A DNA stretch of 64,000 nucleotides from an uncultured Lachnospiraceae bacterium (GCA_947652925.1 CANTEW010000009.1:206-64205); one strand, 5' to 3'; counted from the stretch's first letter, positions 31,527 to 57,563 are shown. Notes: generated by a model not told the origin, from the sequence alone. Made by a program: numbers and translations.

Positions 31527-32444
31527 CTAACTTGCGGGATTCACATGTATCATCACATGCTTTACTTTTGGAAAATCCCGCTCGATCTTTTCATGTATTT
31601 TTTCTGCGACTTCATGTGCTTTCTCCAAGGTATATGTCGCATCCACTGCGATCTCCAGATCCACATAGATCTTATTGCCAAAAATACGGCTCTGGAGCAG
31701 GTCGATCCCAAGCACATCTTCATGTCCTATGACACAGTCATAGATCGCTCTTTCTGTATCTTCGTCTCCGGAATGGTCTACCATCTTATCCAGGGCGTCC
31801 TTAAAAATGTCAAAAGCGGCTTTCATGATAAATGCAAAAATGGCCAGGCTCGCCACTGCGTCCATGACAGGGAAACCCATCCTTGAGCCGGCGATACCGA
31901 TAAGCGCGCCAATGGAAGAAAAAGCATCCGAACGGTGATGCCATGCATCCGCCATCAATGCGGATGAATCGATCTGTTTTGCATAATGCCGTGTATACCA
32001 GTACATCCCTTCTTTTGCGGCGATGGATACCACAGCCGCGATAAGCGCCAGTATCCCAGGTGTTTCCAGGCTCTCATAATTTTTTTCCAGGATGTCCTGC
32101 AGCGCTTGGATCCCGATCCCTGCCCCTGTGATGAACAGTACTGCGGACAAAAGGATAGCCGCTACGCATTCCATACGTTCATGACCGTATGGATGTTCCT
32201 TGTCTGCTTCCTGGACAGAGAATCCTATGCCTATCATGACGACGATCGTGCTGAACACATCCGAAGCGGAATGGATCGCATCGCTGATCATTGCATTGGA
32301 ATTGGCGATGATCCCTGCCAACAGCTTGAAACCGGACAATAATGCATTCAAGATGATCGAGACTGCAGATACTTTGTTTGCGGTTTTTTTTGAATGATCG
32401 TCTACCGCTCGGTCTTTTCTTTCTGTGTTCCTGTTTTTTTTCAT
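31527..32444 (-). CDS. Cation diffusion facilitator (CzcD/FieF-like) metal efflux transporter
   Basis: 305 aa with the TM2/TM5 metal-site motifs (SDAIHSASD and ADAWHHRSD) and a cytoplasmic C-terminal domain. RBS AGGAGG is upstream. Confidence 0.9.
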   Translation of the reverse strand: MKKNRNTERKDRAVDDHSKKTANKVSAVSIILNALLSGFKLLAGIIANSNAMISDAIHSASDVFSTIVVMIGIGFSVQEADKEHPYGHERMECVAAILLSAVLFITGAGIGIQALQDILEKNYESLETPGILALIAAVVSIAAKEGMYWYTRHYAKQIDSSALMADAWHHRSDAFSSIGALIGIAGSRMGFPVMDAVASLAIFAFIMKAAFDIFKDALDKMVDHSGDEDTERAIYDCVIGHEDVLGIDLLQSRIFGNKIYVDLEIAVDATYTLEKAHEVAEKIHEKIERDFPKVKHVMIHVNPAS

Positions 32445-32535: not shown

Positions 32536-32675
32536 AAAAAAACACGGACCAGTATTATTAGTAACTACTGTCCCGTGGATGAAAGACCCACTGCCGTTCT
32601 CATGGCCCGACTCCATAGCAAGATGCCATTGGTCTGCTCAGTTTGTACTGTAGATTGATATGCAGTGCAAAGAGT
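32536..32675 (-). promoter_or_regulatory. Structured 5' leader with an intrinsic terminator; candidate NiCo (czcD-motif) metal riboswitch
   Basis: On the minus strand, ~100 nt carry repeated junction-like strings (CUACAGUAC, CUGAGCAGACC, ACGGCAGUGGGUCU, CACGGGACAGUAG) and local helices (AUGGCA/UGCUAU, AGACC/GGUCU). A terminator follows: GGACAGTA...TACTGGTCC then GTGTTTTTTT (32536-32574). Its 5' arm overlaps the GGGACAG string. The context is upstream of a CDF exporter in a Clostridia genome. Confidence 0.45.
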
Positions 32676-33731: not shown

Positions 33732-33953
33732 CTATAAAGCGGACTCCACATCTGCAACTGTGATCAATGCGTTACGCTGTAAATACTGCATTGCTTTCAG
33801 TGCATAGTCATGTGCTTCTGTACTGGAACCGCAGCAAGCGTCCGTTACCACCTTAAAATGGTGATCGTGCTGGTGTTTATCCTCCGTCATCTCTTTAAGA
33901 TCTTCCTGTTGGATGTCGATGACAAGTAATGCACTTCTTTTTTTGATTTTCAT
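33732..33953 (-). pseudogene. Isochorismatase/cysteine-hydrolase-family relic with an internal in-frame deletion
   Basis: The 73-aa ORF joins a family N-terminus (KRSALLVIDIQQ) directly to a family C-terminus (KVVTDACCGSSTEAHDYALKAMQ...ITVADV). The ~100 central residues of normal ~180-aa members are missing. Its 5' end overlaps the 3' end of the MATE gene. Confidence 0.5.
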
Positions 33954-35274
33954 GAGCGTTTGTTCCTTTCTCTTTGTATTTATTTTTATATATCACATAT
34001 CCGGATAATGAGACTATAGATTCTGTTATCGGATAAGTAAGCCAGACGCCTGTCATTTTCCACAGAGCAGACAGCAGAAATGCCATAGGGACGATCAAGA
34101 CCAGCCCTCTTAGTACCGAAAGGATATGGGCTGGCAGCGCCTTTTCTATCGAAGTAAAAAAGGTTGCTAAAATGATATTATATCCAACAAACGGGTTAGA
34201 TATAAAATATGATCTTAATCCCATTACAGAGATCTGTTGCAGCTCCATATTGTGCTCACTATTGAAAACAGCGGTGATCGGCTCTGCGAAGGCAAAAATG
34301 GATAAATAAATGATGCCGGACAAGGATAGCATCGTTACTAAAGCGTATTGGAGTATCGTCCTTGCCTGTCTGTTATCCCCGACACCATAAAGACCACTGA
34401 TCAATGGTTGGATGCCCTGTGCGATACCCGTATAGATGGCAACGATCACAAGAGAGATATTCGCGACTACTCCATAAGCGGCAACTCCTGTATTCCCCGC
34501 CACTTTTAATATGATCGTATTAAAAGTGATCATCGTGATCCCAGAAGAAAGCTGAGCGATCAGGGACGGAAAACCTAATGATAGCTCCTGCTTTATGATA
34601 TATATCCTTATCTTTGTTTTTACAAAATGGAACGTATTTTTATTTCTCATCCAGTGAGGGAGCATCATAAGGATACTGATGATCGATGATGATCCCGTAG
34701 CAAAAATGGCCCCGAAGATCCCCATCCTCAATGGAAAGATAAAGATATGATCTAATATGATATTGGAAAAACTCCCAAACAACATAGCGATCATGGAAAG
34801 CTGCGGACTGCCGTCGTTTCTTACAAAACAAAGCAGTACATCGTTCAGGATAAAAGCAGGTGAAAAAAGCAGCAGCCAATACAGATAAGTATCGGTCATT
34901 TCCAATATGTGCATATCTGCGCCTAAGAGCATTGCCAGCTGATCGGAAAAGAAGAGACCTATCAAGACAAATGCTGCTGAAAAGATCACAGCGAGATATA
35001 TTGTATTTGTATAGACCCGGTCAACTTCCGCATCCCTTTCCTGACTCTTACAGACTGAAAATCTTGTTGCACCGCCCATACCCAGCATAAGACCTGTTCC
35101 ATGGATAAAATTATATACAGGAACAGCAAGATTTAAAGCGGTAAGACCATTTGTTCCCAATCCTTTTGATACAAAAAATGTATCGGCTAATATGTAGCAG
35201 GATACCCCCAATGTCCCTAAAACACTTAAGGTCGTATAATGGGCAAAATCCCGCATACAAGACTTTTGTTCCAT
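33895..35274 (-). CDS. MATE-family efflux transporter
   Basis: Start at 35274 (MEQKSCMRDFAHYTTLSVLGTLGVSCYILADTFFVSKGLGTNGLTALN) after GGAAGGAG. About 12 TM segments. Confidence 0.85.
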   Translation of the reverse strand: MEQKSCMRDFAHYTTLSVLGTLGVSCYILADTFFVSKGLGTNGLTALNLAVPVYNFIHGTGLMLGMGGATRFSVCKSQERDAEVDRVYTNTIYLAVIFSAAFVLIGLFFSDQLAMLLGADMHILEMTDTYLYWLLLFSPAFILNDVLLCFVRNDGSPQLSMIAMLFGSFSNIILDHIFIFPLRMGIFGAIFATGSSSIISILMMLPHWMRNKNTFHFVKTKIRIYIIKQELSLGFPSLIAQLSSGITMITFNTIILKVAGNTGVAAYGVVANISLVIVAIYTGIAQGIQPLISGLYGVGDNRQARTILQYALVTMLSLSGIIYLSIFAFAEPITAVFNSEHNMELQQISVMGLRSYFISNPFVGYNIILATFFTSIEKALPAHILSVLRGLVLIVPMAFLLSALWKMTGVWLTYPITESIVSLSGYVIYKNKYKEKGTNAHENQKKKCITCHRHPTGRS

Positions 35275-35558
35275 ATATCCGCTCCTTCCTAAGATCAAAA
35301 AAATAGCGTCAGAGCTTTCTATCTCCAAAGGCCTAACGATAGAAAGTCTGACGCTGGATCCCTTACCCGGCGGCAAGAAATGTCAATTGATATTTTCATG
35401 TATTATACAATGGAAAAGTGAAAAAATCAATAACAAGATCCTATTTATTTTTACGCTCGATACTCTCTTACGGGATGTTTTTCCTCCAGGGGTGCTTTTT
35501 TTCCTATCATTGTGGACAAGAGGGTGCATTTTCTGCTATGATGGATAACAGTGATCTC

Positions 35559-36041: not shown

Positions 36042-36144
36042 GGATTTTATAGTAAGATCAAAATATCTGATAATATGATTGACATATATGATGAAAAAAG
36101 GTACAGTTAAACAGGAGAATGAAAGCAGGTCATAAGGGGAAAAT

Positions 36145-37038
36145 ATGGATTTTAAACAACTCCGATCGTATATCGCGGTGGTAAAATATAAGAGTTTCAC
36201 AATAGCGGCTGAGAAACTGGGGATCTCGCAGCCAACGATCAGTACTCATATCCGGATCCTGGAAGGGGAGCTGGATTCCCAGTTAGTCACCCGCACATCC
36301 AAGAATTTTGAGATCACGCCCAGGGGCTGGGAATTATATGAATGCGCCCAGAGCATCTTGAAACTGCGGGATGATATGGTGGACCGATGGAATGGAAAAG
36401 AGCCGAAGGTGATCCGTCTCGGCGCTTCCACGATCCCATCGGCCTATATCTTGCCGGAAGTCCTGCCAGCCTATGAAAAACAGCATAAAGACGTATGTTT
36501 TGTGATCGAGCAGGGCGATAGCTGCGGTATCATCGAGGCTGTACATAAAGGCAGTTTTGATATCGGGCTGGTAGGCATGCGGACGGATGATGATGCGTTG
36601 GAGTTCCAGCAGTTCTACCAGGACCGCATGGTCCTCATCACACCCGCTACAGAGCGTTATCTGGCTATGCAGGAGCGCGATCCGGTCCCGTTGGAGGAAC
36701 TGTTGGCTGAACCCATGATCTTGCGGGAGCAGGGCAGCGGGACAGGAAAGAGCGCGGAGAGGCTCCTGGAGAAGCTGGGCATCGCAGGGGACAGTCTGTC
36801 AGTAACGGCCAGGATCAACGACCCGGAATCGATCTAGAATCTGGTCGCGGGAGGGCTGGGTGTGTCGATCATATCGGAAAAGGCCGTACAGGGTTATCTG
36901 GAACCCCGGCGTCTCTTGAAATTTGCACTCCCTAGCGATCTGTCGGAGAGACAGTTCTATATGATCTACCAGAAAGGTTGTATATTAAAGGATTATGTAG
37001 AAAGATTTTCCGATCATCTTATGAAGTTTTATCAATAA
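36145..37038 (+). pseudogene. LysR-family transcriptional regulator interrupted by a single in-frame TAG (36835-36837)
   Basis: It has the HTH FTIAAEKLGISQPTISTHIRILE. ORF 36145..36837 ends ...INDPESI*. The same frame continues NLVAGGLGVSIISEKAV... to TAA 37036-37038, giving a normal 297-codon LysR length. Confidence 0.6.
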
Positions 37039-37051
37039 GGAGAAAACAGGC

Positions 37052-37825
37052 ATGGTTTCTGAAAAGAAATACTATGTAGGGATCGATATCGGTTCTACAG
37101 CGTCAAAAACTGTGGTACTGGAGGAGAGTAAAGTGGTGGATCACTTTGTGCTGCCTACGGGTTGGAACGGACGGGAGACTGCACAGTGTATCCATCAGAA
37201 ACTGGAAGAAGACGGATACGCCGCCGCTATGTGCTGTGTGGCGACCGGTTACGGCAGGGTCTGTGTGGATTATGCCGATAAGATCATAACGGAGATCACC
37301 TGTCATGGAAAAGGCGGATGGGCGTTGTTTGAAAAAGACGCGACGATCATCGATGTGGGCGGGCAGGATACGAAGATCATCAAAGTGGCGCAGGGACAGG
37401 TGATCGATTTTCTCATGAATGATAAATGCGCCGCGGGGACAGGTAAATTCATCGAGGTCATGGCTAACCGCCTGGGAGTTTCCCTGGAAGGATTGTATCA
37501 GCTCGCTGAAAACGGCGAACCCCTCTCGATCAGCGCTATGTGTACAGTCTTTGCGGAATCAGAGGTGATCAGCCATATCGGTATGGGAGAGCGAAGGGAA
37601 GATATCGCCGCCGGGGTGGTCCATTCTGTCGCTTCCCGCGTATCGAGCCTTGCTTCCCGTTTCGGCATCAGCGGGGAGCTGGCTCTCACAGGAGGGCTGT
37701 GCGACAGCCCCTATTTCATCCGGGTCCTTTCGGAAAGATTAGAGCAGCCTGTCCAGACCCATCCTTTTGCCCGGTACGCCGGTGCGCTTGGGGCGGCTCT
37801 GGCGGCGGAAGGGAGGAGAACATGA
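37052..37825 (+). CDS. BcrAD/BadFG/HgdC-type ATPase (activator of 2-hydroxyacyl-CoA-dehydratase-family enzymes)
   Basis: 257 aa with YYVGIDIGSTASKTVVL (ASKHA phosphate-1), DVGGQDTK and NDKCAAGTGKFIEVMA (cluster-bridging Cys region). Confidence 0.85.
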   Translation: MVSEKKYYVGIDIGSTASKTVVLEESKVVDHFVLPTGWNGRETAQCIHQKLEEDGYAAAMCCVATGYGRVCVDYADKIITEITCHGKGGWALFEKDATIIDVGGQDTKIIKVAQGQVIDFLMNDKCAAGTGKFIEVMANRLGVSLEGLYQLAENGEPLSISAMCTVFAESEVISHIGMGERREDIAAGVVHSVASRVSSLASRFGISGELALTGGLCDSPYFIRVLSERLEQPVQTHPFARYAGALGAALAAEGRRT

Positions 37826-38958
37826 TCTATCTGGATTCTTCAGCGACTTCTTTTTTGAAACCGCCGCAGGTGGCGCATGCGGTCTGTCAGGCGTTCCAGA
37901 ACATGGGGAATGCCGGGCGGGGTGCGCATGCGGCGACTCTGGGGGCTTCCCGCATGCTCTACGATACCAGGGAAAAACTGGCCGGGCTTTTTAATATCGC
38001 GGATCCGGCGCGCATCTGTTTTACATGCAATGCCACAGAGTCTTTGAATATCGCCGTCCATGGGCTGATCTGCGGAGGCGACCATGTGATCACAACGGTC
38101 TGTGAACACAATTCTGTCCTGCGGCCGCTGTATGCAAAGGAACAGGAGGGAGCGTCCCTGTCGATCCTGCCTGCGGATGAGAAAGGCAGGATCATCTATG
38201 AGAGACTGGAAGATCTTCGCAGAGAGGATACAAAAGCCGTGGTGATCACCCATGCCTCGAACCTTACGGGGAATGTGACAGACCTTCTTAAGATATCTGC
38301 TCTTACCCGCAGATACGGTCTGCTCCTGATCGTGGATGCCTCCCAGACCGCTGGCTCTATCCCCATAGATGTGGAGGAGATGGGCATTGACGTCCTCTGT
38401 TTTACAGGACATAAGGGGCTGATGGGTCCCCAGGGCACAGGGGGTATCTATGTGCGGAAAGGGTTGTCGCCCAGACCGTTAAAAGTGGGCGGCAGTGGTG
38501 TACACAGTTTCGATAAGATGCATCCGGTGGACATGCCCACAGCGTTGGAGGCCGGGACTTTGAACGGCCATGGGATAGCAGGATTAAATGCGGCTATTGA
38601 TTTTATCAATGAGACGGGGGTAGGGGCCATCCATGAGAAAGAAGATGCATTGGCCAGGCGATTTATAAAAGGTATGGCAGATATCCCGCAGGTGATCCTC
38701 TACGGCGACCTGGAGGCAGATCTGCGGGCGCCTATCGTATCTCTGAATATCGGGGATGTGGATTCCGCCTTTGTCAGCGATATCTTATGGGAAGACTATG
38801 AGATCTGTGTCCGCGCCGGCGCCCACTGCGCGCCTTTGATGCACCATGCTCTGGGGACGGTGGGGCAGGGGGCGGTGCGGTTCAGTTTTTCTTATTTTAA
38901 TACGGAGGACGAAGTGGATACCGCTATAAGAGCGATACGGGAGATCGCGGAGGAGTAA
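37822..38958 (+). CDS. Class V aminotransferase, cysteine desulfurase / selenocysteine-lyase-like (short N-terminus type)
   Basis: ATG 37822 overlaps the preceding stop (ATGA). It has MIYLDSSATSF, HASNLTG, and FTGHKGLMGPQGTGG (PLP-Lys context), with Cys in RAGAHCAP. Confidence 0.8.
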   Translation: MIYLDSSATSFLKPPQVAHAVCQAFQNMGNAGRGAHAATLGASRMLYDTREKLAGLFNIADPARICFTCNATESLNIAVHGLICGGDHVITTVCEHNSVLRPLYAKEQEGASLSILPADEKGRIIYERLEDLRREDTKAVVITHASNLTGNVTDLLKISALTRRYGLLLIVDASQTAGSIPIDVEEMGIDVLCFTGHKGLMGPQGTGGIYVRKGLSPRPLKVGGSGVHSFDKMHPVDMPTALEAGTLNGHGIAGLNAAIDFINETGVGAIHEKEDALARRFIKGMADIPQVILYGDLEADLRAPIVSLNIGDVDSAFVSDILWEDYEICVRAGAHCAPLMHHALGTVGQGAVRFSFSYFNTEDEVDTAIRAIREIAEE

Positions 38959-38966
38959 GAGCCATC

Positions 38967-39203
38967 ATGAGAGAGAAGAAGAAATATATGGTCTTATCAT
39001 TTCATTCCACCACCGAGGCCATATCCTTTGAAAAACAATGCATCCAAGATCAGATCCCCGGACGGCTGATCCCCATCCCCCGGGAGATCACTGCCGGATG
39101 CGGATTGGCCTGGCGCATCCCGGCAGATGAGTATCCCTCTTGCCGGCAGATGATCCAGGACCGGCAGATGAAATACCAGGATATAACAGAACTATCATTA
39201 TAG
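38967..39203 (+). CDS. DUF3343-like small protein (putative Se/S carrier family)
   Basis: 78 aa. VLSFHSTTEAISFEKQC...GRLIPIPREITAGCGLAWRI fits the DUF3343 pattern (F.st..A...E......g.l.P.P..i...CG.a.r). Confidence 0.6.
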   Translation: MREKKKYMVLSFHSTTEAISFEKQCIQDQIPGRLIPIPREITAGCGLAWRIPADEYPSCRQMIQDRQMKYQDITELSL

Positions 39204-39222
39204 AAAGAGGAGGAAAGATATT

Positions 39223-40365
39223 ATGGAACTGCGAAAAGAGCTGCCTGAGATCTTTGAAGATTTTGCCGAGGGGAGGAGGAATGCGTTTCTTAACGTAAAG
39301 AAGATCAAAGACCAGGATAAACCGGTCATCGGGATCTTCTGTACATATTTCCCCCAGGAGCTGGCTGTAGCCATGGGCGCCGCCGTCGTTTCTCTGTGCG
39401 CCACATCCGACGAGACGATCCCGGCGGCGGAAGCAGACTTGCCGAAAAACCTCTGCCCGCTGATCAAATCCAGCTACGGATTTGGAAAGACTGACAAATG
39501 TCCGTTTTTCTTTTTCTCAGATCTGGTGGTGGGAGAGACAACCTGTGACGGGAAAAAGAAAATGTATGAGTACATGGCGGATTTCAAACCGGTACACATC
39601 ATGGAGCTGCCAAACTGCCCCACAGAGATGGGCGTGGAGATGTATAGGAAAGAGATCATCCGCATGAAAGAAAAGCTGGAAGAAGTCTTCGGCGTGACGA
39701 TCACAGAAGATGATATCCGCCGGGGTATCCAGGTCAAAAATGCGGAGAGGGCCGCGCTGAAGAGATTGTATTCGGTCATGAAGGCAGACCCGGCTCCGAT
39801 CACCGGCACAGACCTGATGAACACCCTTGTGGCCACGACCTTTAACTTCGAGCGCGAGAAGATCCCGGCACAGATGGACGCCTTAGTGGAGAAGATCAAG
39901 AAAGAGAGCAAGGCTACGGAGAAGAGACCAAGGATCTTGATCACAGGATGTCCCATGGGCGGCGCCACCATGAAAGTTGTGGAGGCTGTAGAAGAGAACG
40001 GTGCGGCTGTCGTCGCTTTTGAGAACTGTTCAGGAGCGAAATCTGTGGAAGAAAATGTAGACGAGTCGATCTCTGACGTATACGAAGCTCTTGCCAGGAA
40101 ATATATCAATATCGGATGTTCCTGTATGACTCCCAACGACAATAGGATCAAATTATTAAATAGTATGATCGACGAATATAATGTGGACGGCGTGATCGAT
40201 ATGGAACTGCAGGCCTGCCATACATATGCGGTGGAAGCGCTTCGGATCAAACGTTTTGTCAACGATGAGAAGAAGATACCGTATATGAACCTGGAGACAG
40301 ATTACTCCCAGTCAGATGTGGGACAGTTGAAGACGAGGATCGCCGCGTTCATTGAGATGCTGTAA
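39223..40365 (+). CDS. 2-hydroxyacyl-CoA dehydratase / benzoyl-CoA reductase-family protein, single-subunit Cys-rich type (double-cubane-cluster-protein-like)
   Basis: 380 aa with 11 Cys, including NLCPLIKSSYG, ETTCDGKKK, ITGCPMGG and ENCSGAKS. It is co-operonic with an HgdC-type ATPase. Confidence 0.7.
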   Translation: MELRKELPEIFEDFAEGRRNAFLNVKKIKDQDKPVIGIFCTYFPQELAVAMGAAVVSLCATSDETIPAAEADLPKNLCPLIKSSYGFGKTDKCPFFFFSDLVVGETTCDGKKKMYEYMADFKPVHIMELPNCPTEMGVEMYRKEIIRMKEKLEEVFGVTITEDDIRRGIQVKNAERAALKRLYSVMKADPAPITGTDLMNTLVATTFNFEREKIPAQMDALVEKIKKESKATEKRPRILITGCPMGGATMKVVEAVEENGAAVVAFENCSGAKSVEENVDESISDVYEALARKYINIGCSCMTPNDNRIKLLNSMIDEYNVDGVIDMELQACHTYAVEALRIKRFVNDEKKIPYMNLETDYSQSDVGQLKTRIAAFIEML

Positions 40366-40396
40366 AAGATATAGGAGAAGATCAGGAGGGATCAAG

Positions 40397-41014
40397 ATGA
40401 TACAGGTAAATGCTATGGGCGACGCATGCCCGATACCAGTTGTCAAGACAAAAAACGCGATCAGGGAGCTGTCAGGCCCCGGCATTGTGGAGACCCTGGT
40501 GGACAATGAGATCGCCGTACAGAACCTTACAAAGATGGCAAACCAGAAAGGGTACGGGGTCAAGTCAGAAAAACTGGGCGCGGATCAGTATAAAGTGACC
40601 ATGACAGTGGGAGAGGGCGCCGAGATGCCCCAGGAAGGCGAGGAGGAAGTCTGCCTTGTGGAACCCGGCCAGCAGAAAAAGAAGATCGTGGCGGTCATCT
40701 CTTCACCGAATATGGGTGACGGAGACGAGGGATTAGGCAGGACTCTCATGAAAGGGTTCATCTATGCGCTGAGCCAGCAGGACGTCCTGCCGGAGACGAT
40801 CCTCTTCTATAACGGCGGGGCGGCACTGAGCTGCGAGGGTTCCCCGGCACTGGAAGATTTAAAGAGCCTGGAAGCCCAGGGCGTGGAGATCCTCACCTGC
40901 GGGACCTGCCTGGATTTCTATGGTTTAAAAGACAAACTGCAGGTGGGCGATGTGACAAATATGTATGTGATCGTTGAAAAAATGGTGGGCGCCCACTTGA
41001 TCGTAAAACCATAA
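40397..41014 (+). CDS. yedF: YedF-like selenium-metabolism protein (TusA/SirA-like N-domain + DsrE-like C-domain)
   Basis: ATG 40397 follows AGGAGG. It has VNAMGDACPIPVVKTK (CPxP motif), and the C-terminal half with TCGTCLDFYG resembles DsrE-fold proteins. Confidence 0.65.
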   Translation: MIQVNAMGDACPIPVVKTKNAIRELSGPGIVETLVDNEIAVQNLTKMANQKGYGVKSEKLGADQYKVTMTVGEGAEMPQEGEEEVCLVEPGQQKKKIVAVISSPNMGDGDEGLGRTLMKGFIYALSQQDVLPETILFYNGGAALSCEGSPALEDLKSLEAQGVEILTCGTCLDFYGLKDKLQVGDVTNMYVIVEKMVGAHLIVKP

Positions 41015-41025
41015 GGAGACAGATC

Positions 41026-42144
41026 ATGGATCACGCAGAATTGATAAAACGCATGAGTGAGCAGAAAAACGAGATGACTGCGGCAGAGAGGATCAAAGCC
41101 TATAATGCAGGGGAAGAGGTGGACTATCAGCCTTATACCCTGCAGGCGCCGGATCCGGCCATGGCAGACATCTTCGGCTTTACTACCACGCAGTTCGCAA
41201 AAGACTTTGAGGTAAAAAGTGAAGTAATCCGAAGGCGCAGGGAAGAATTTGGTCTGGACAGCTTTAATGTGGGATTGGGGCTGAAGACGATCGGTGGGGC
41301 ACTTGGCTCCACCCTTGCCGCGCCGGAACATGGCATCGATTATGTGGCGGATCATATCTTAAAAGATTATAAAGACTTTGACGCTCTGGAAGTGACAGAC
41401 CCGTATAAAAACCCAAAACTCGCGCCTATCCTGGAGAGTGCGAAAAGACTGAAAGATCGTTTTCCGGATGTGAGCATGACCACCAGCGTGGCAGGTCCGA
41501 TCTCCACAGCCATTGCTGTGAGGCCGGTGGAGATGGTCCTGCGGGACACGGTGAAAAATCCTGCGATGCTGCACAGACTGCTGGATCTTACGGTGGAGTG
41601 TTCCCTGCGATGGTTTGAAGCCTTCTATCATGAGTTCGGACCTGTGGGGACGAATTTCTCCGATCCGGTGACTTGTATGGATGTGATCAGCAAGAAACAA
41701 TTCGACGAGTTCTCGCTCCCCTACATCAAGAGATTGATCGACGGGACAGAAAAGATCATGGGGTCCCGTCCGGGCGCGCATATCTGCGGAAAGACAAACC
41801 CTATCTGGAGCGACCTTGCAGACGCCGGGCTGTTCTCCTTCAGTATCGACAACTGTGAAGATCTGGAAGTGGCAAAAAACGCCGTGGGAGACAGGATGCG
41901 GATCGCGGGGAATGTCCCGCCCATAGAGGTGATGAAAGAGGGGACGATCGACGATGTGATCGCTTCCTGTAGAGAATGTATGAGAAAATGTGCGGATAAT
42001 CCGTCGGGCTTCATATTAAATACAGGATGTCAACTCCCCATCGGGACGCCGAAAGAGAATGTGGAGGCGTTCATCTATGCGGCGCGGAAATATGGACGCG
42101 GCGCAAGGCTGGGATGCGTACCGAAAGGGTTAGAAGAAGAGTAA
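41026..42144 (+). CDS. URO-D-superfamily protein of the MtaA/CmuA (corrinoid:thiol methyltransferase) type
   Basis: 372 aa with the (beta/alpha)8 URO-D pattern. Candidate Zn ligands are AHICG (HxC) and NTGCQLP. Confidence 0.65.
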   Translation: MDHAELIKRMSEQKNEMTAAERIKAYNAGEEVDYQPYTLQAPDPAMADIFGFTTTQFAKDFEVKSEVIRRRREEFGLDSFNVGLGLKTIGGALGSTLAAPEHGIDYVADHILKDYKDFDALEVTDPYKNPKLAPILESAKRLKDRFPDVSMTTSVAGPISTAIAVRPVEMVLRDTVKNPAMLHRLLDLTVECSLRWFEAFYHEFGPVGTNFSDPVTCMDVISKKQFDEFSLPYIKRLIDGTEKIMGSRPGAHICGKTNPIWSDLADAGLFSFSIDNCEDLEVAKNAVGDRMRIAGNVPPIEVMKEGTIDDVIASCRECMRKCADNPSGFILNTGCQLPIGTPKENVEAFIYAARKYGRGARLGCVPKGLEEE

Positions 42145-42229: not shown

Positions 42230-42592
42230 TTACTTTTTCCCATATCTTTCGACGTATCTTTTGGCTTCCTCGCTGGAGATAGGATATCTCACCTGTATCC
42301 GGGATATGGTATCCTGCTCACTCTCGCCAAATTCCTGGCAGGTCTCTATCAATATCTTGATGCCGTCTTCTCGTTCTTCTTGTCTGCCCTCTTTTCTCCC
42401 CTCTTCTTTTTCGATCTCGATATTTTCCAGATCGCGCATATATAGAGTCATATATTCCCGCCTCCATTTCCGGTCCATTTTTGCCTTTTTCACTGCTTTG
42501 TCCAGTCTGATGATATAAGGATCGTCTATAGGCTCTTTTCCGACCATATAATCCAGGAAAGCTTTGAGCCCGTCGCTGACGTCATCCATCAC
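42230..42592 (-). pseudogene. C-terminal fragment of an Rpn/YhgA-like recombination-promoting nuclease / putative transposase
   Basis: The 120-aa ORF has a GTG start. KAVKKAKMDRKWRREYMTLYMRDLENIEIEKEEGRKEGRQEEREDG is the characteristic tail of that family, and the PD-(D/E)XK N-terminal domain is absent. The MITE-like element begins 49 nt upstream. Confidence 0.55.
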
Positions 42593-56249: not shown

Positions 56250-57563
56250 ATGTTATATCTAGAATGTACATCCGGGATCAGCGGGGATATGATGGTGGCT
56301 GCCCTCCTGGATCTGGGTGCGGATGGACAAACACTTAAAAGAGCCCTCGCAAGCCTTCCGGTAGACGGATTCCAGATCCATATCTCCCGGGTCGTGAAGA
56401 GCGGACTGGATGCCTGTGATTTTCATGTCCTTCTGGACGAAGATCATGAGAACCATGACCATGACATGGATTATCTGCATGGAGGCGGTCACGGATCAGG
56501 CCATCACCACGCCCGCCATAGCCAGGGGGATGACCATGACAGCAGCCATACGCAGGGCAGAGGCCATGTCCACGGCGCGCATGCGCAGCATGTCCACAGA
56601 GGACTCCCGGAGATCCTGGAGATCATCCGCCAGGCAGATATGACTGAGCGGGCAAAAGGACTGGCGGAGAAGATCTTCCGCATACTGGCGCAGGCGGAGG
56701 CAAAAGCCCACGGTGTACCGGTGGAGCAGGTACATTTTCATGAGGTGGGAGCGGTAGACTCCATTGTAGATATCCTGGCGGTGGCAGTCTGCCTGGATGA
56801 TCTGGATATCACGGACGTCGTCATACCCAGATTATGTGAAGGGACAGGGACAGTCCGCTGTCAGCACGGTATCCTTCCGGTCCCCGTGCCCGCTGTACTG
56901 CATATCATACAGGAACACAGCCTGCCGCTCACGGTCACCCAGGTGGAAGGAGAGTTGGTGACCCCTACCGGAGCGGCTATCGCGGCTGCTATCCGGACAA
57001 CAGGGACACTGCCGGAGAGATTTTTTGTAAAAAAGACCGGGATAGGCGCAGGGAAACGGGCTTATGCCTGCCCGGGCATCTTGCGGGCCATGATCCTGGA
57101 AACGGGAGAGATAAAAGGAACGGGGACGGATACCGTATATAAACTGGAAGCCAACATCGACGATTGTCCAGGGGAGAGGCTTGGCTACGCCATGGAATGT
57201 CTGTTCCAGGCAGGCGTAAAGGACGTCCATTATACGCCTGTCTTTATGAAGAAGAACCGTCCGGCCTATCAGTTGAATGTGATCTGTGAAAAAAAAGACG
57301 TCCCGCGGGCAGAAGAGATCATCTTCCGTGAGACGACCACCATAGGGATCCGCAGGATGGAGATAGAGAGAGCGGTACTCCAAAGGGAAGTGAGAGAGGT
57401 GGAGACTTCCCTGGGCAGAGCGGCTGTGAAGATCTGTTCCAGCGGCACAGGCAGGTGGATCTATCCGGAGTATGAGAGTATATCCAGGCTGGCCAGACAA
57501 CACGGGCTGTCGTACGGGCAGGCAGAGCAGCGGGTGATGCGGGAAGTTTCAGACACGCTCTAA
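56250..57563 (+). CDS. larC: LarC-family nickel insertion protein (nickel-pincer cofactor biosynthesis, DUF111)
   Basis: It has MLYLECTSGISGDMMVAALLDLG at the N-terminus, a His-rich tract (HENHDHDMDYLHGGGHGSGHHHARH...HVHGAHAQHVH) and HFHEVGAVDSIVDI. The last codons coincide with a MITE end-like motif. Confidence 0.85.
   Translation: MLYLECTSGISGDMMVAALLDLGADGQTLKRALASLPVDGFQIHISRVVKSGLDACDFHVLLDEDHENHDHDMDYLHGGGHGSGHHHARHSQGDDHDSSHTQGRGHVHGAHAQHVHRGLPEILEIIRQADMTERAKGLAEKIFRILAQAEAKAHGVPVEQVHFHEVGAVDSIVDILAVAVCLDDLDITDVVIPRLCEGTGTVRCQHGILPVPVPAVLHIIQEHSLPLTVTQVEGELVTPTGAAIAAAIRTTGTLPERFFVKKTGIGAGKRAYACPGILRAMILETGEIKGTGTDTVYKLEANIDDCPGERLGYAMECLFQAGVKDVHYTPVFMKKNRPAYQLNVICEKKDVPRAEEIIFRETTTIGIRRMEIERAVLQREVREVETSLGRAAVKICSSGTGRWIYPEYESISRLARQHGLSYGQAEQRVMREVSDTL
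57547..57562 (+). repeat. MITE end-like motif embedded in the 3' end of larC
   Basis: TTTCAGACACGCTCTA matches TTTCAAACACGCTCTA (42788-42803) at 15 of 16 positions and supplies the last larC codons and the stop. Confidence 0.5.

Follow-up and report, generated by a model that had tools for sequence, protein, structure and literature searches.

We analysed a 64,000-nucleotide stretch of DNA from an uncultured Lachnospiraceae bacterium (GCA_947652925.1 CANTEW010000009.1:206-64205; hereafter the window), in which seven genes at 36145-42144 encode a LysR regulator, a double-cubane-cluster protein (DCCP) with its ATPase (DCCP-R), a NifS-like lyase, two candidate selenium/sulfur carriers and an MtaA-like methyltransferase. 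With about even confidence, and judging from protein families, retained catalytic residues and gene neighbourhoods, we propose that the seven genes form a selenium-mobilisation operon, which would gather selenium from organic forms and pass it on in protein-bound form, as selenide, to a SelD encoded outside the window. The operon comprises the following features:

36079..36107, + strand: promoter-like site TTGACA-17-TACAGT, 5' of the LysR gene (consensus scan, 10/12 matches), the candidate operon promoter
36145..37038, + strand: selenium-type LysR gene (LysR_Se / SelR / HrsM-like), 297 codons; HTH_1 and LysR_substrate, best model NF040786
36835..36837, + strand: in-frame TAG (AAG to TAG, Lys231 to stop), read from the sequence, which removes the last 66 LysR residues
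37052..37825, + strand: DCCP-R, archerase-type ATPase (HgdC/BcrAD family); PF01869 BcrAD_BadFG 188.8 bits, TIGR00241 251 bits (cutoff 125)
37822..38958, + strand: EF2568/SclA-family NifS-like lyase dependent on pyridoxal phosphate (PLP); Aminotran_5, TIGR01977 427.6 bits (cutoff 377)
38967..39203, + strand: DUF3343, putative Se/S carrier of 78 amino acids (aa); PF11823 Se_S_carrier 78 bits (cutoff 25), Cys45 in a GCG motif
39223..40365, + strand: DCCP, short 380-aa form; HGD-D, NF040772 526.5 bits (cutoff 350), 6ENO E 7e-78
40397..41014, + strand: YedF, a TusA domain fused to a DsrE-like domain; TIGR03527 219.8 bits (cutoff 110), PF01206 and PF02635
41026..42144, + strand: MtaA-like protein of the Mlp2 clade, putative Zn(His-Cys-Cys) corrinoid methyltransferase; URO-D 188.8 bits
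42217..42242, + strand: terminator-like hairpin (pattern scan), between the operon and a convergent downstream open reading frame (ORF)

An ORF listing confirms seven + strand ORFs across 36145-42144, each where it was first placed, with intergenic gaps of, in order, 13, -4, 8, 19, 31 and 11 nucleotides (nt) and a GGAG-type ribosome-binding site ahead of every gene. The original prediction gave the spacing as -4 to 31 nt, which holds only if the LysR gene is read through its TAG to the TAA at 37036-37038; the in-frame stop had been overlooked. To assess conservation, the 26-52 kb portion of the window was compared by blastn with the two closest species (L007 and L008). The single long match to both spans exactly 36070-42144 at ~81% nt identity, and beyond it one or both flanks are different. 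Both species have all seven ORFs uninterrupted, and for every operon gene the protein identity exceeds the nucleotide identity, the methyltransferase being the best conserved (94% aa identity) and the lyase the least (80%). Because homology covers exactly this interval between differing flanks with all ORFs intact, the seven-gene block is, on sequence comparison, a conserved and selected cassette beyond chance. The promoter-like site falls just inside the conserved block, whose first position is 36070, and conservation stops at 42144, before the terminator-like hairpin. Convergent with the operon lies a 120-aa Lys/Glu-rich ORF (42230-42592, - strand) without a Pfam match, of which conspecific contigs have a 119-aa version.

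Each operon protein was searched against Pfam and NCBIfam profiles at curated cutoffs. The family assignments first made from the sequence agree with these searches (BcrAD_BadFG, TIGR01977, Se_S_carrier, HGD-D, YedF, URO-D and LysR), and the motifs quoted with them are all present. The reductase meets the DCCP equivalog model NF040772 well above its cutoff. It contains 11 cysteines in total, as first counted, and alignment with the solved structure 6ENO recovers all seven conserved motif positions (C40, C59, C78, C108, C269, C299/301 and C332), i.e., the six cluster ligands and the Cys94-equivalent. The published seven-cysteine regular expression (Haft) has no literal match in the protein, the spacing in the C-terminal half being shifted by indels. 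The window protein aligns along its full length, beginning at 6ENO residue 63, and therefore lacks the N-terminal extension; this extension closes the substrate channel, and the YjiM-like class II proteins that lack it possibly take larger substrates (Dobbek review). The cognate archerase is encoded alongside, at 37052-37825. It carries the DIGSTASK and NDKCAAGTGKF motifs, its best solved structures are 1HUX HgdC (1e-54) and 7YYL_E DCCP-R (9e-43), and the cysteines bridging its [4Fe-4S] cluster, C126 and C164, both align with cluster cysteines of solved structures.

Between and behind the reductase genes are encoded three proteins predicted to handle selenium or sulfur on cysteines. The lyase retains the PLP lysine in a GHKG motif and the catalytic Cys336 in AGAHCAP; its best solved structures are SufS/CsdB, relative to which its N-terminus is ~25-35 residues shorter, which accords with the short N-terminus first noted for it. 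Published work on SclA shows a preference for selenocysteine (Sec) over Cys and a reductant requirement for freeing Se from the SclA selenosulfide (SclA paper). The 78-aa DUF3343 protein has the conserved Cys45 in the GCG motif. YedF, which most likely starts at ATG 40397 rather than at the upstream TTG 40352, carries C11 in GDACPIP (the TusA CPxP motif) and C168-G-T-C171 in its DsrE-like half. A sequence search of the PDB with YedF returned TusA-domain structures only and gave no functional insight.

The last gene of the operon encodes a relative of MtaA. Against the MtaA structure 4AY7 (E 3e-23, 25% identity), H252, C254 and C335, the HxC motif and distal Cys of the original prediction, align with the Zn ligands, and the protein scores 152.6 bits against the MtaA/CmuA model TIGR01463, short of the 235.4 cutoff, and is thus related to MtaA and outside that family. 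A genome scan, which gave close Lachnospiraceae relatives only, recovered orthologs of 85-94% identity in Dorea, Faecalicatena, Extibacter, Bariatricus and other Lachnospiraceae. At twelve other Lachnospiraceae loci (orthologs of 85-91% identity) the gene is found either within a corrinoid mlp cluster or next to other URO-D genes, and in 11/12 it follows RACo or is one of the cluster's core genes. These clusters usually run [CobW]-Mlp(289 aa)-corrinoid protein-Mlp(338 aa)-RACo-Mlp(373 aa), with the ortholog in the last core position, and in some cases continue into MetQNI-type transport genes; they correspond to what Kountz & Balskus call the "type I mlp gene cluster". One of them is that of Extibacter muris DSM 28560 (L017), a strain listed as SelABCD-positive (Kountz & Balskus 2023, PMC10418091); its Mlp and the window methyltransferase share 86% identity. 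Our neighbour-joining tree of Mlp proteins has three groups: proteins of 289-292 aa, in which neither the His nor the distal Cys is present (Mlp1); proteins of 338 aa, which cluster with MtaA (Mlp3); and the 373-aa group, with which the window methyltransferase falls together with the position-2 Mlp of Zhenpiania (32% identity). We infer from this topology and by elimination, not by comparison with ClMlp2 itself, that the window methyltransferase belongs to the Mlp2 clade. ClMlp2 catalyses methylcobalamin:selenide methyl transfer with weak sulfide activity, and the genetics of M. voltae sdmC, which falls in the Mlp2 clade, support dimethylselenide use (Kountz & Balskus 2023, PMC10418091).

The regulator is encoded here in an interrupted form. 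The LysR ORF of the window encodes 230 aa, and the frame continues for 66 codons past the TAG to the TAA. Codon 231 is AAG (Lys) in 6/6 related sequences (L001, L002, L004, L005, L007 and L008), of which the first four are conspecific metagenomic contigs or metagenome-assembled genomes with otherwise identical proteins and the last two are the sister species. Truncated at the TAG, the window ORF scores 233.2 bits against NF040786, below the cutoff of 250, whereas the otherwise identical intact allele (L001) scores 290 bits. On these profile scores the gene is a member of the selenium metabolism-associated LysR family, and the product encoded here is truncated. The TAG is either a nonsense allele of the regulator in this strain or assembly, or a sequencing error; a reading as pyrrolysine or as programmed readthrough was rejected, because the six related sequences carry AAG at this codon and a single A-to-T change separates the two. 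The premature stop lies 200 nt before the next gene and could exert polarity on the operon. The nonsense allele here and the intact allele on conspecific contigs together make a natural control.

In the sister species L007, the operon has a selenium-related neighbourhood. There, a SelD (AIRS/AIRS_C, N-terminal GGGCTAK, 45% identical to the Zhenpiania SelD) is encoded 1.7 kb downstream of Mlp2; a two-component system comes next, and after it corrinoid-Mlp3-RACo-Mlp1. On the same contig (12788-13822 and 91-3311), the block is seen to lie between an upstream pair of molybdopterin oxidoreductase and NuoF-like genes (formate-dehydrogenase-like) and selD; the remaining mlp cluster is 6 kb downstream of the block, in effect making up a selenium island. 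Gene order suggests that the window species has lost or moved selenium neighbours of the L007 type.

More distant DCCP contexts were collected from metagenome contigs and exact-protein look-ups. In Muricomes (L021, DCCP 77% identity) the DCCP gene heads an mlp cluster, and in Zhenpiania (L022, DCCP 76%) it stands between the corrinoid protein and Mlp3, in the run SelA-SelB-LysR-NifS-TusA-DsrE-DUF3343-SelD-CobW-Mlp1-Mlp2-corrinoid-DCCP-Mlp3-RACo. The Zhenpiania SelD (L022 5154-6311) is called from an internal ATG, upstream of which the frame reads ...TDHGG*AAKIG... with a TGA at the catalytic Sec/Cys position, which makes it probable that the annotation has cut short a selenoprotein. SelD, YedF, NifS, DUF3343, ATPase and DCCP are grouped in L049 and L085, and DCCP adjoins an mlp cluster in L076 and L099. 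A second DCCP paralog of Extibacter muris (L017 16748-18984; 47% identical), with a divergently transcribed LysR gene (32% identity), was observed 6 kb from the mlp cluster of that species. The smallest arrangement, at L104 (7236-10143), is a LysR_Se (71%)-ATPase (74%)-DCCP (88%) cassette (identities to the window) with no lyase, carrier or Mlp genes. This cassette suggests that LysR_Se-ATPase-DCCP is the core, into which the window lineage would have inserted the lyase and DUF3343 and to which it would have appended YedF and Mlp2; it also suggests that the selenium-type regulator is tied primarily to the reductase pair.

Put together, these data allow the following sequence of events to be proposed. 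LysR_Se, truncated here by the nonsense codon, would sense selenium status and control the operon. The Mlp2-type zinc methyltransferase would demethylate methylselenol or dimethylselenide, with a Co(I) corrinoid protein, whose gene would lie elsewhere, as the methyl acceptor, and the SclA-family lyase would draw Se from free selenocysteine as an enzyme-bound selenosulfide. DUF3343 and YedF (TusA-DsrE) would relay this Se on their cysteines, avoiding free selenide. DCCP-R would then spend ATP to load the [8Fe-9S] cluster of DCCP with low-potential electrons, and DCCP may use them to free HSe- from carrier-bound Se(0) or selenosulfide, or to break a C-Se or Se-Se bond in a methylated selenide, a step that would be analogous to that of the MarHDK C-S reductases of non-selenium mlp clusters. 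The original prediction was that the operon may build, reduce or methylate a labile Se- or S-containing species or cofactor; Se (or S) handling fits the comparative evidence, but the methyl step is likely a demethylation of methyl-selenides, not a methylation.

The selenium assignment is supported because the YedF, DCCP, EF2568-family and Se_S_carrier cutoffs are passed, and that of LysR_Se by the intact allele; because catalytic residues are kept in all enzymes and the block is conserved as a unit; because selD lies 1.7 kb from the block in L007 and DCCP orthologs elsewhere stand beside SelA/SelB/SelD or in Mlp clusters; and because of published associations. Haft & Gwadz 2022, who built NF040772, found 955/970 DCCPs in SelD-positive genomes, DCCP depending on SelD-positive genomes and not the reverse. 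In Methanococcus, Se starvation induces an sdm-like corrinoid methyltransferase locus, and selenium regulation goes through the LysR-type HrsM.

Several observations weigh against this proposal. Selenide can be set free from selenosulfides by thiols, and that step may therefore need no ATP-driven reductase. The lyase reaches 346.6 bits against the SclA model NF040779, below the cutoff of 525. As first stated for selD, selA and selB, the window holds no sign of these genes: tblastn with the Zhenpiania SelD and SelB gave no match, the ten mid-size window ORFs searched against Pfam are housekeeping genes only, none of them SelA- or SelD-like, and ARAGORN found no tRNA, hence no selC. For the methyl step, tblastn with F. 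orotica queries detected no corrinoid protein, RACo, CobW or other Mlp in the 64-kb window, so the locus, with only one Mlp and neither Mlp3 nor corrinoid protein nor RACo within 64 kb, falls outside the type I mlp cluster definition, and at none of the twelve other Lachnospiraceae loci does the methyltransferase ortholog stand beside this operon. DUF3343 is not selenium-specific and has no selenium-only branch (Lin et al. 2015, PMC5322559), and a literature search covering 2022-2026 gave no physiological DCCP substrate.

The survey of gene neighbourhoods, proposed at the outset as a check, gave a divided answer. DCCP does occur beside selD/selA/selB or mlp clusters in several taxa, as described above. 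Among 80 metagenomic loci, dereplicated to 39 clusters at 90% identity, an ATPase gene lies within 10 kb of DCCP in 22/39, but a Se-relay or Mlp gene lies within that distance in only 9/39. Close DCCP orthologs (84-88% identity) also occur as DCCP and ATPase alone, and the stand-alone DCCP loci have no recurrent neighbour, the adjacent genes being unrelated (integrase and Rep, a DsbD-like protein, MatE). These counts likewise tell against the proposal, and on them the linkage of DCCP to selenium genes or mlp clusters appears recurrent, not the rule.

One alternative for the reductase is that DCCP acts on a selenium-free substrate, its pathway needing selenoenzymes before or after it, with the selenium genes kept as neighbours through co-regulation by selenium status. 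We regard this as unlikely, even though Haft & Gwadz consider it no less likely than direct selenium chemistry. DCCP reduces acetylene, the short class-II-like form in the window may take a larger substrate, and a 77%-identical ortholog (L106) lies beside racemase/ABC genes. However, the operon contains no candidate substrate genes, every non-redox gene in it is a selenium/sulfur handler, and the minimal cassette of L104 pairs DCCP directly with a selenium-type LysR. At L106 (1-2003), 7 kb from the stand-alone DCCP ortholog, we also observed a 717-aa fusion of an HGD-D domain (DCCP-like, 52% identical) with a PucR-type HTH_30, which may be a DCCP-derived sensor or regulator.

With similarly small likelihood, the methyltransferase could be a recent passenger, a stray mlp-cluster gene joined by rearrangement to the DCCP/selenium-relay core with no mechanistic coupling to it. 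Its position 3' of YedF is confined to the window species, L007 and L008, and both its placement at the twelve other loci and the missing corrinoid protein would fit. On the other hand, the 11 nt that separate the gene from YedF contain no promoter-like site, and the gene has a ribosome-binding site of its own; it is the best-conserved gene of the block; and DCCP is independently linked to Mlp genes in other arrangements (Muricomes, Zhenpiania, L076 and L099).

A third alternative, which we consider improbable, is that the relay serves DCCP itself: the lyase, DUF3343 and YedF would deliver a bridging chalcogen to make a selenium-bridged double cubane, and the operon would encode a reductase with its maturation set, acting on an unrelated small-molecule substrate. 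Haft & Gwadz list such a cluster as a formal possibility that would explain the co-occurrence of DCCP with SelD, beside their proposal of selenium-compound processing. The gene order is suggestive, DCCP lying between DUF3343 and YedF and the SclA-DUF3343 pair being inserted between ATPase and DCCP relative to L104, and the one-way dependence of DCCP on SelD-positive genomes would fit as well. Against it, the solved DCCP structure has a sulfide bridge (though the protein was produced in E. coli), many close DCCP and ATPase pairs have no lyase or carrier nearby, and the repeated linkage to corrinoid Mlp clusters would be left unexplained. The specific claim that the DCCP cofactor contains selenium, e.g., a mu2-selenide between the cubanes, with lyase, DUF3343 and YedF as dedicated Se-insertion machinery, is in our estimate slightly more improbable still; if true, DCCPs would add a fourth to the classes of specific selenium use in biology, and their near-absolute restriction to SelD-positive genomes would be explained.

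As improbable as the third alternative is a sulfur operon, in which a persulfide relay and methyl-thiol demethylation (e.g., methionine/methylthio salvage) would be combined with a DCCP that reduces sulfur species. In its favour, sulfur handlers occur in each of the TusA, DsrE, NifS-like and DUF3343 families, and DUF3343 lacks a branch specific to selenium. ClMlp2 is weakly active with sulfide, methyl-sulfur metabolism is the assigned role of ~10% of mlp clusters (Kountz & Balskus 2023, PMC10418091), and the NifS-like protein falls below the SclA cutoff. This is countered by the selenium equivalog cutoffs passed by LysR_Se (intact allele) and YedF, by selD adjacent to the block in L007 and SelA/B/D adjacent in Zhenpiania, and by the listing of Extibacter and Dorea, which carry the Mlp ortholog, as SelABCD-positive and outside the non-selenium clade. 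Moreover, non-selenium mlp clusters carry nitrogenase-like MarHDK genes instead of DCCP.

Other features of the window lie outside the operon. The Rfam scan of the window returned only a NiCo (nickel/cobalt) riboswitch at 32566-32651 (- strand; 63.9 bits, gathering score 37), just upstream of a Cation_efflux/ZT_dimer gene (31527-32444, - strand), and a LarC-type nickel-insertion protein is encoded at 56250-57563 (+ strand; PF01969, 457 bits); together they point to nickel handling in the region, unrelated to the operon. At 33732-33953 (- strand), a 73-aa isochorismatase-like remnant, probably a gene fragment, overlaps the 3' end of a MatE efflux gene (33895-35376, - strand).

The operon bears on the physiological substrate of DCCP and on how anaerobes obtain selenide from organic and methylated selenium. 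If DCCP frees selenide or cleaves C-Se bonds, this would be the first function for the family and would fill a gap in gut selenium cycling. The operon is also a compact, reconstitutable test system, with a reductase pair, a regulator, a lyase, two candidate carriers and a methyltransferase within 6 kb of DNA from a gut Lachnospiraceae lineage.

Counterparts have been described for individual proteins of the operon. Like the DCCP/DCCP-R pair of Carboxydothermus hydrogenoformans (6ENO, 7YYL), the window encodes a homodimeric-type HAD-family protein with the seven-cysteine motif and a cognate archerase, predicted to carry out ATP-dependent low-potential reduction. The window DCCP differs in its 380-aa length and in lacking the channel-closing extension, by which it resembles the YjiM-like "class II" form; the window ATPase is nearer to HgdC than to the C. 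hydrogenoformans DCCP-R, by the E values given above; and no selenium context is described for the C. hydrogenoformans pair. Residue comparison with H99, H100, K202 and C341 of Enterococcus faecalis SclA (EF2568), a member of the same TIGR01977 family, shows that the window lyase keeps the PLP lysine and the catalytic Cys as well as the preceding His, and that it has Asn at the position of His100. SclA sits in a selD operon, and both lyases are encoded with selenium genes.

At the level of gene sets, the combination, which the original prediction did not recognise as a described pathway, is not new: three bioinformatic publications already report the association (Lin et al. 2015, PMC5322559; Haft & Gwadz 2022; Kountz & Balskus 2023, PMC10418091), and the window operon is a compact new member. 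LysR_Se, an HGD subunit, activase, DUF3343, the Sec-lyase family and YedF appear as STRING partners with SelA/B/D in Slackia in Table 1 of Lin et al. 2015 (PMC5322559), where the reductase is not discussed. The locus in question, Slackia heliotrinireducens Shel_25300-25470, thus shares six families with the window operon; it differs in being actinobacterial, in having selABD inside, in its two HGD-family and two DUF3343 genes, and in listing no MtaA-like gene. The type I mlp clusters (Kountz & Balskus 2023, PMC10418091, Fig. 5) likewise combine MtaA-like His-Cys-Cys methyltransferases with Sec lyase, DCCP, DCCPR and selR (LysR_Se), with no role assigned to DCCP. Clusters of this sort belong to anaerobic SelABCD-positive Firmicutes, Extibacter muris among them, and the window differs in that the Mlp is appended to a DCCP/relay operon rather than the reverse. 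The sdmABC locus of Methanococcus voltae/maripaludis also pairs an MtaA-like corrinoid-dependent methyltransferase, for Se from methylated selenide, with LysR-type HrsM regulation, but is archaeal, has its corrinoid protein within the locus, and has no DCCP, lyase or YedF reported there. Finally, the methylthio-alkane reductase MarHDK, which cleaves C-S bonds, is, like DCCP/DCCP-R, an ATP-driven two-component low-potential reductase encoded beside mlp clusters, although its fold and cofactor are unrelated; by this analogy we propose that DCCP/DCCP-R may be the functional analogue of MarHDK in the selenium-type clusters.

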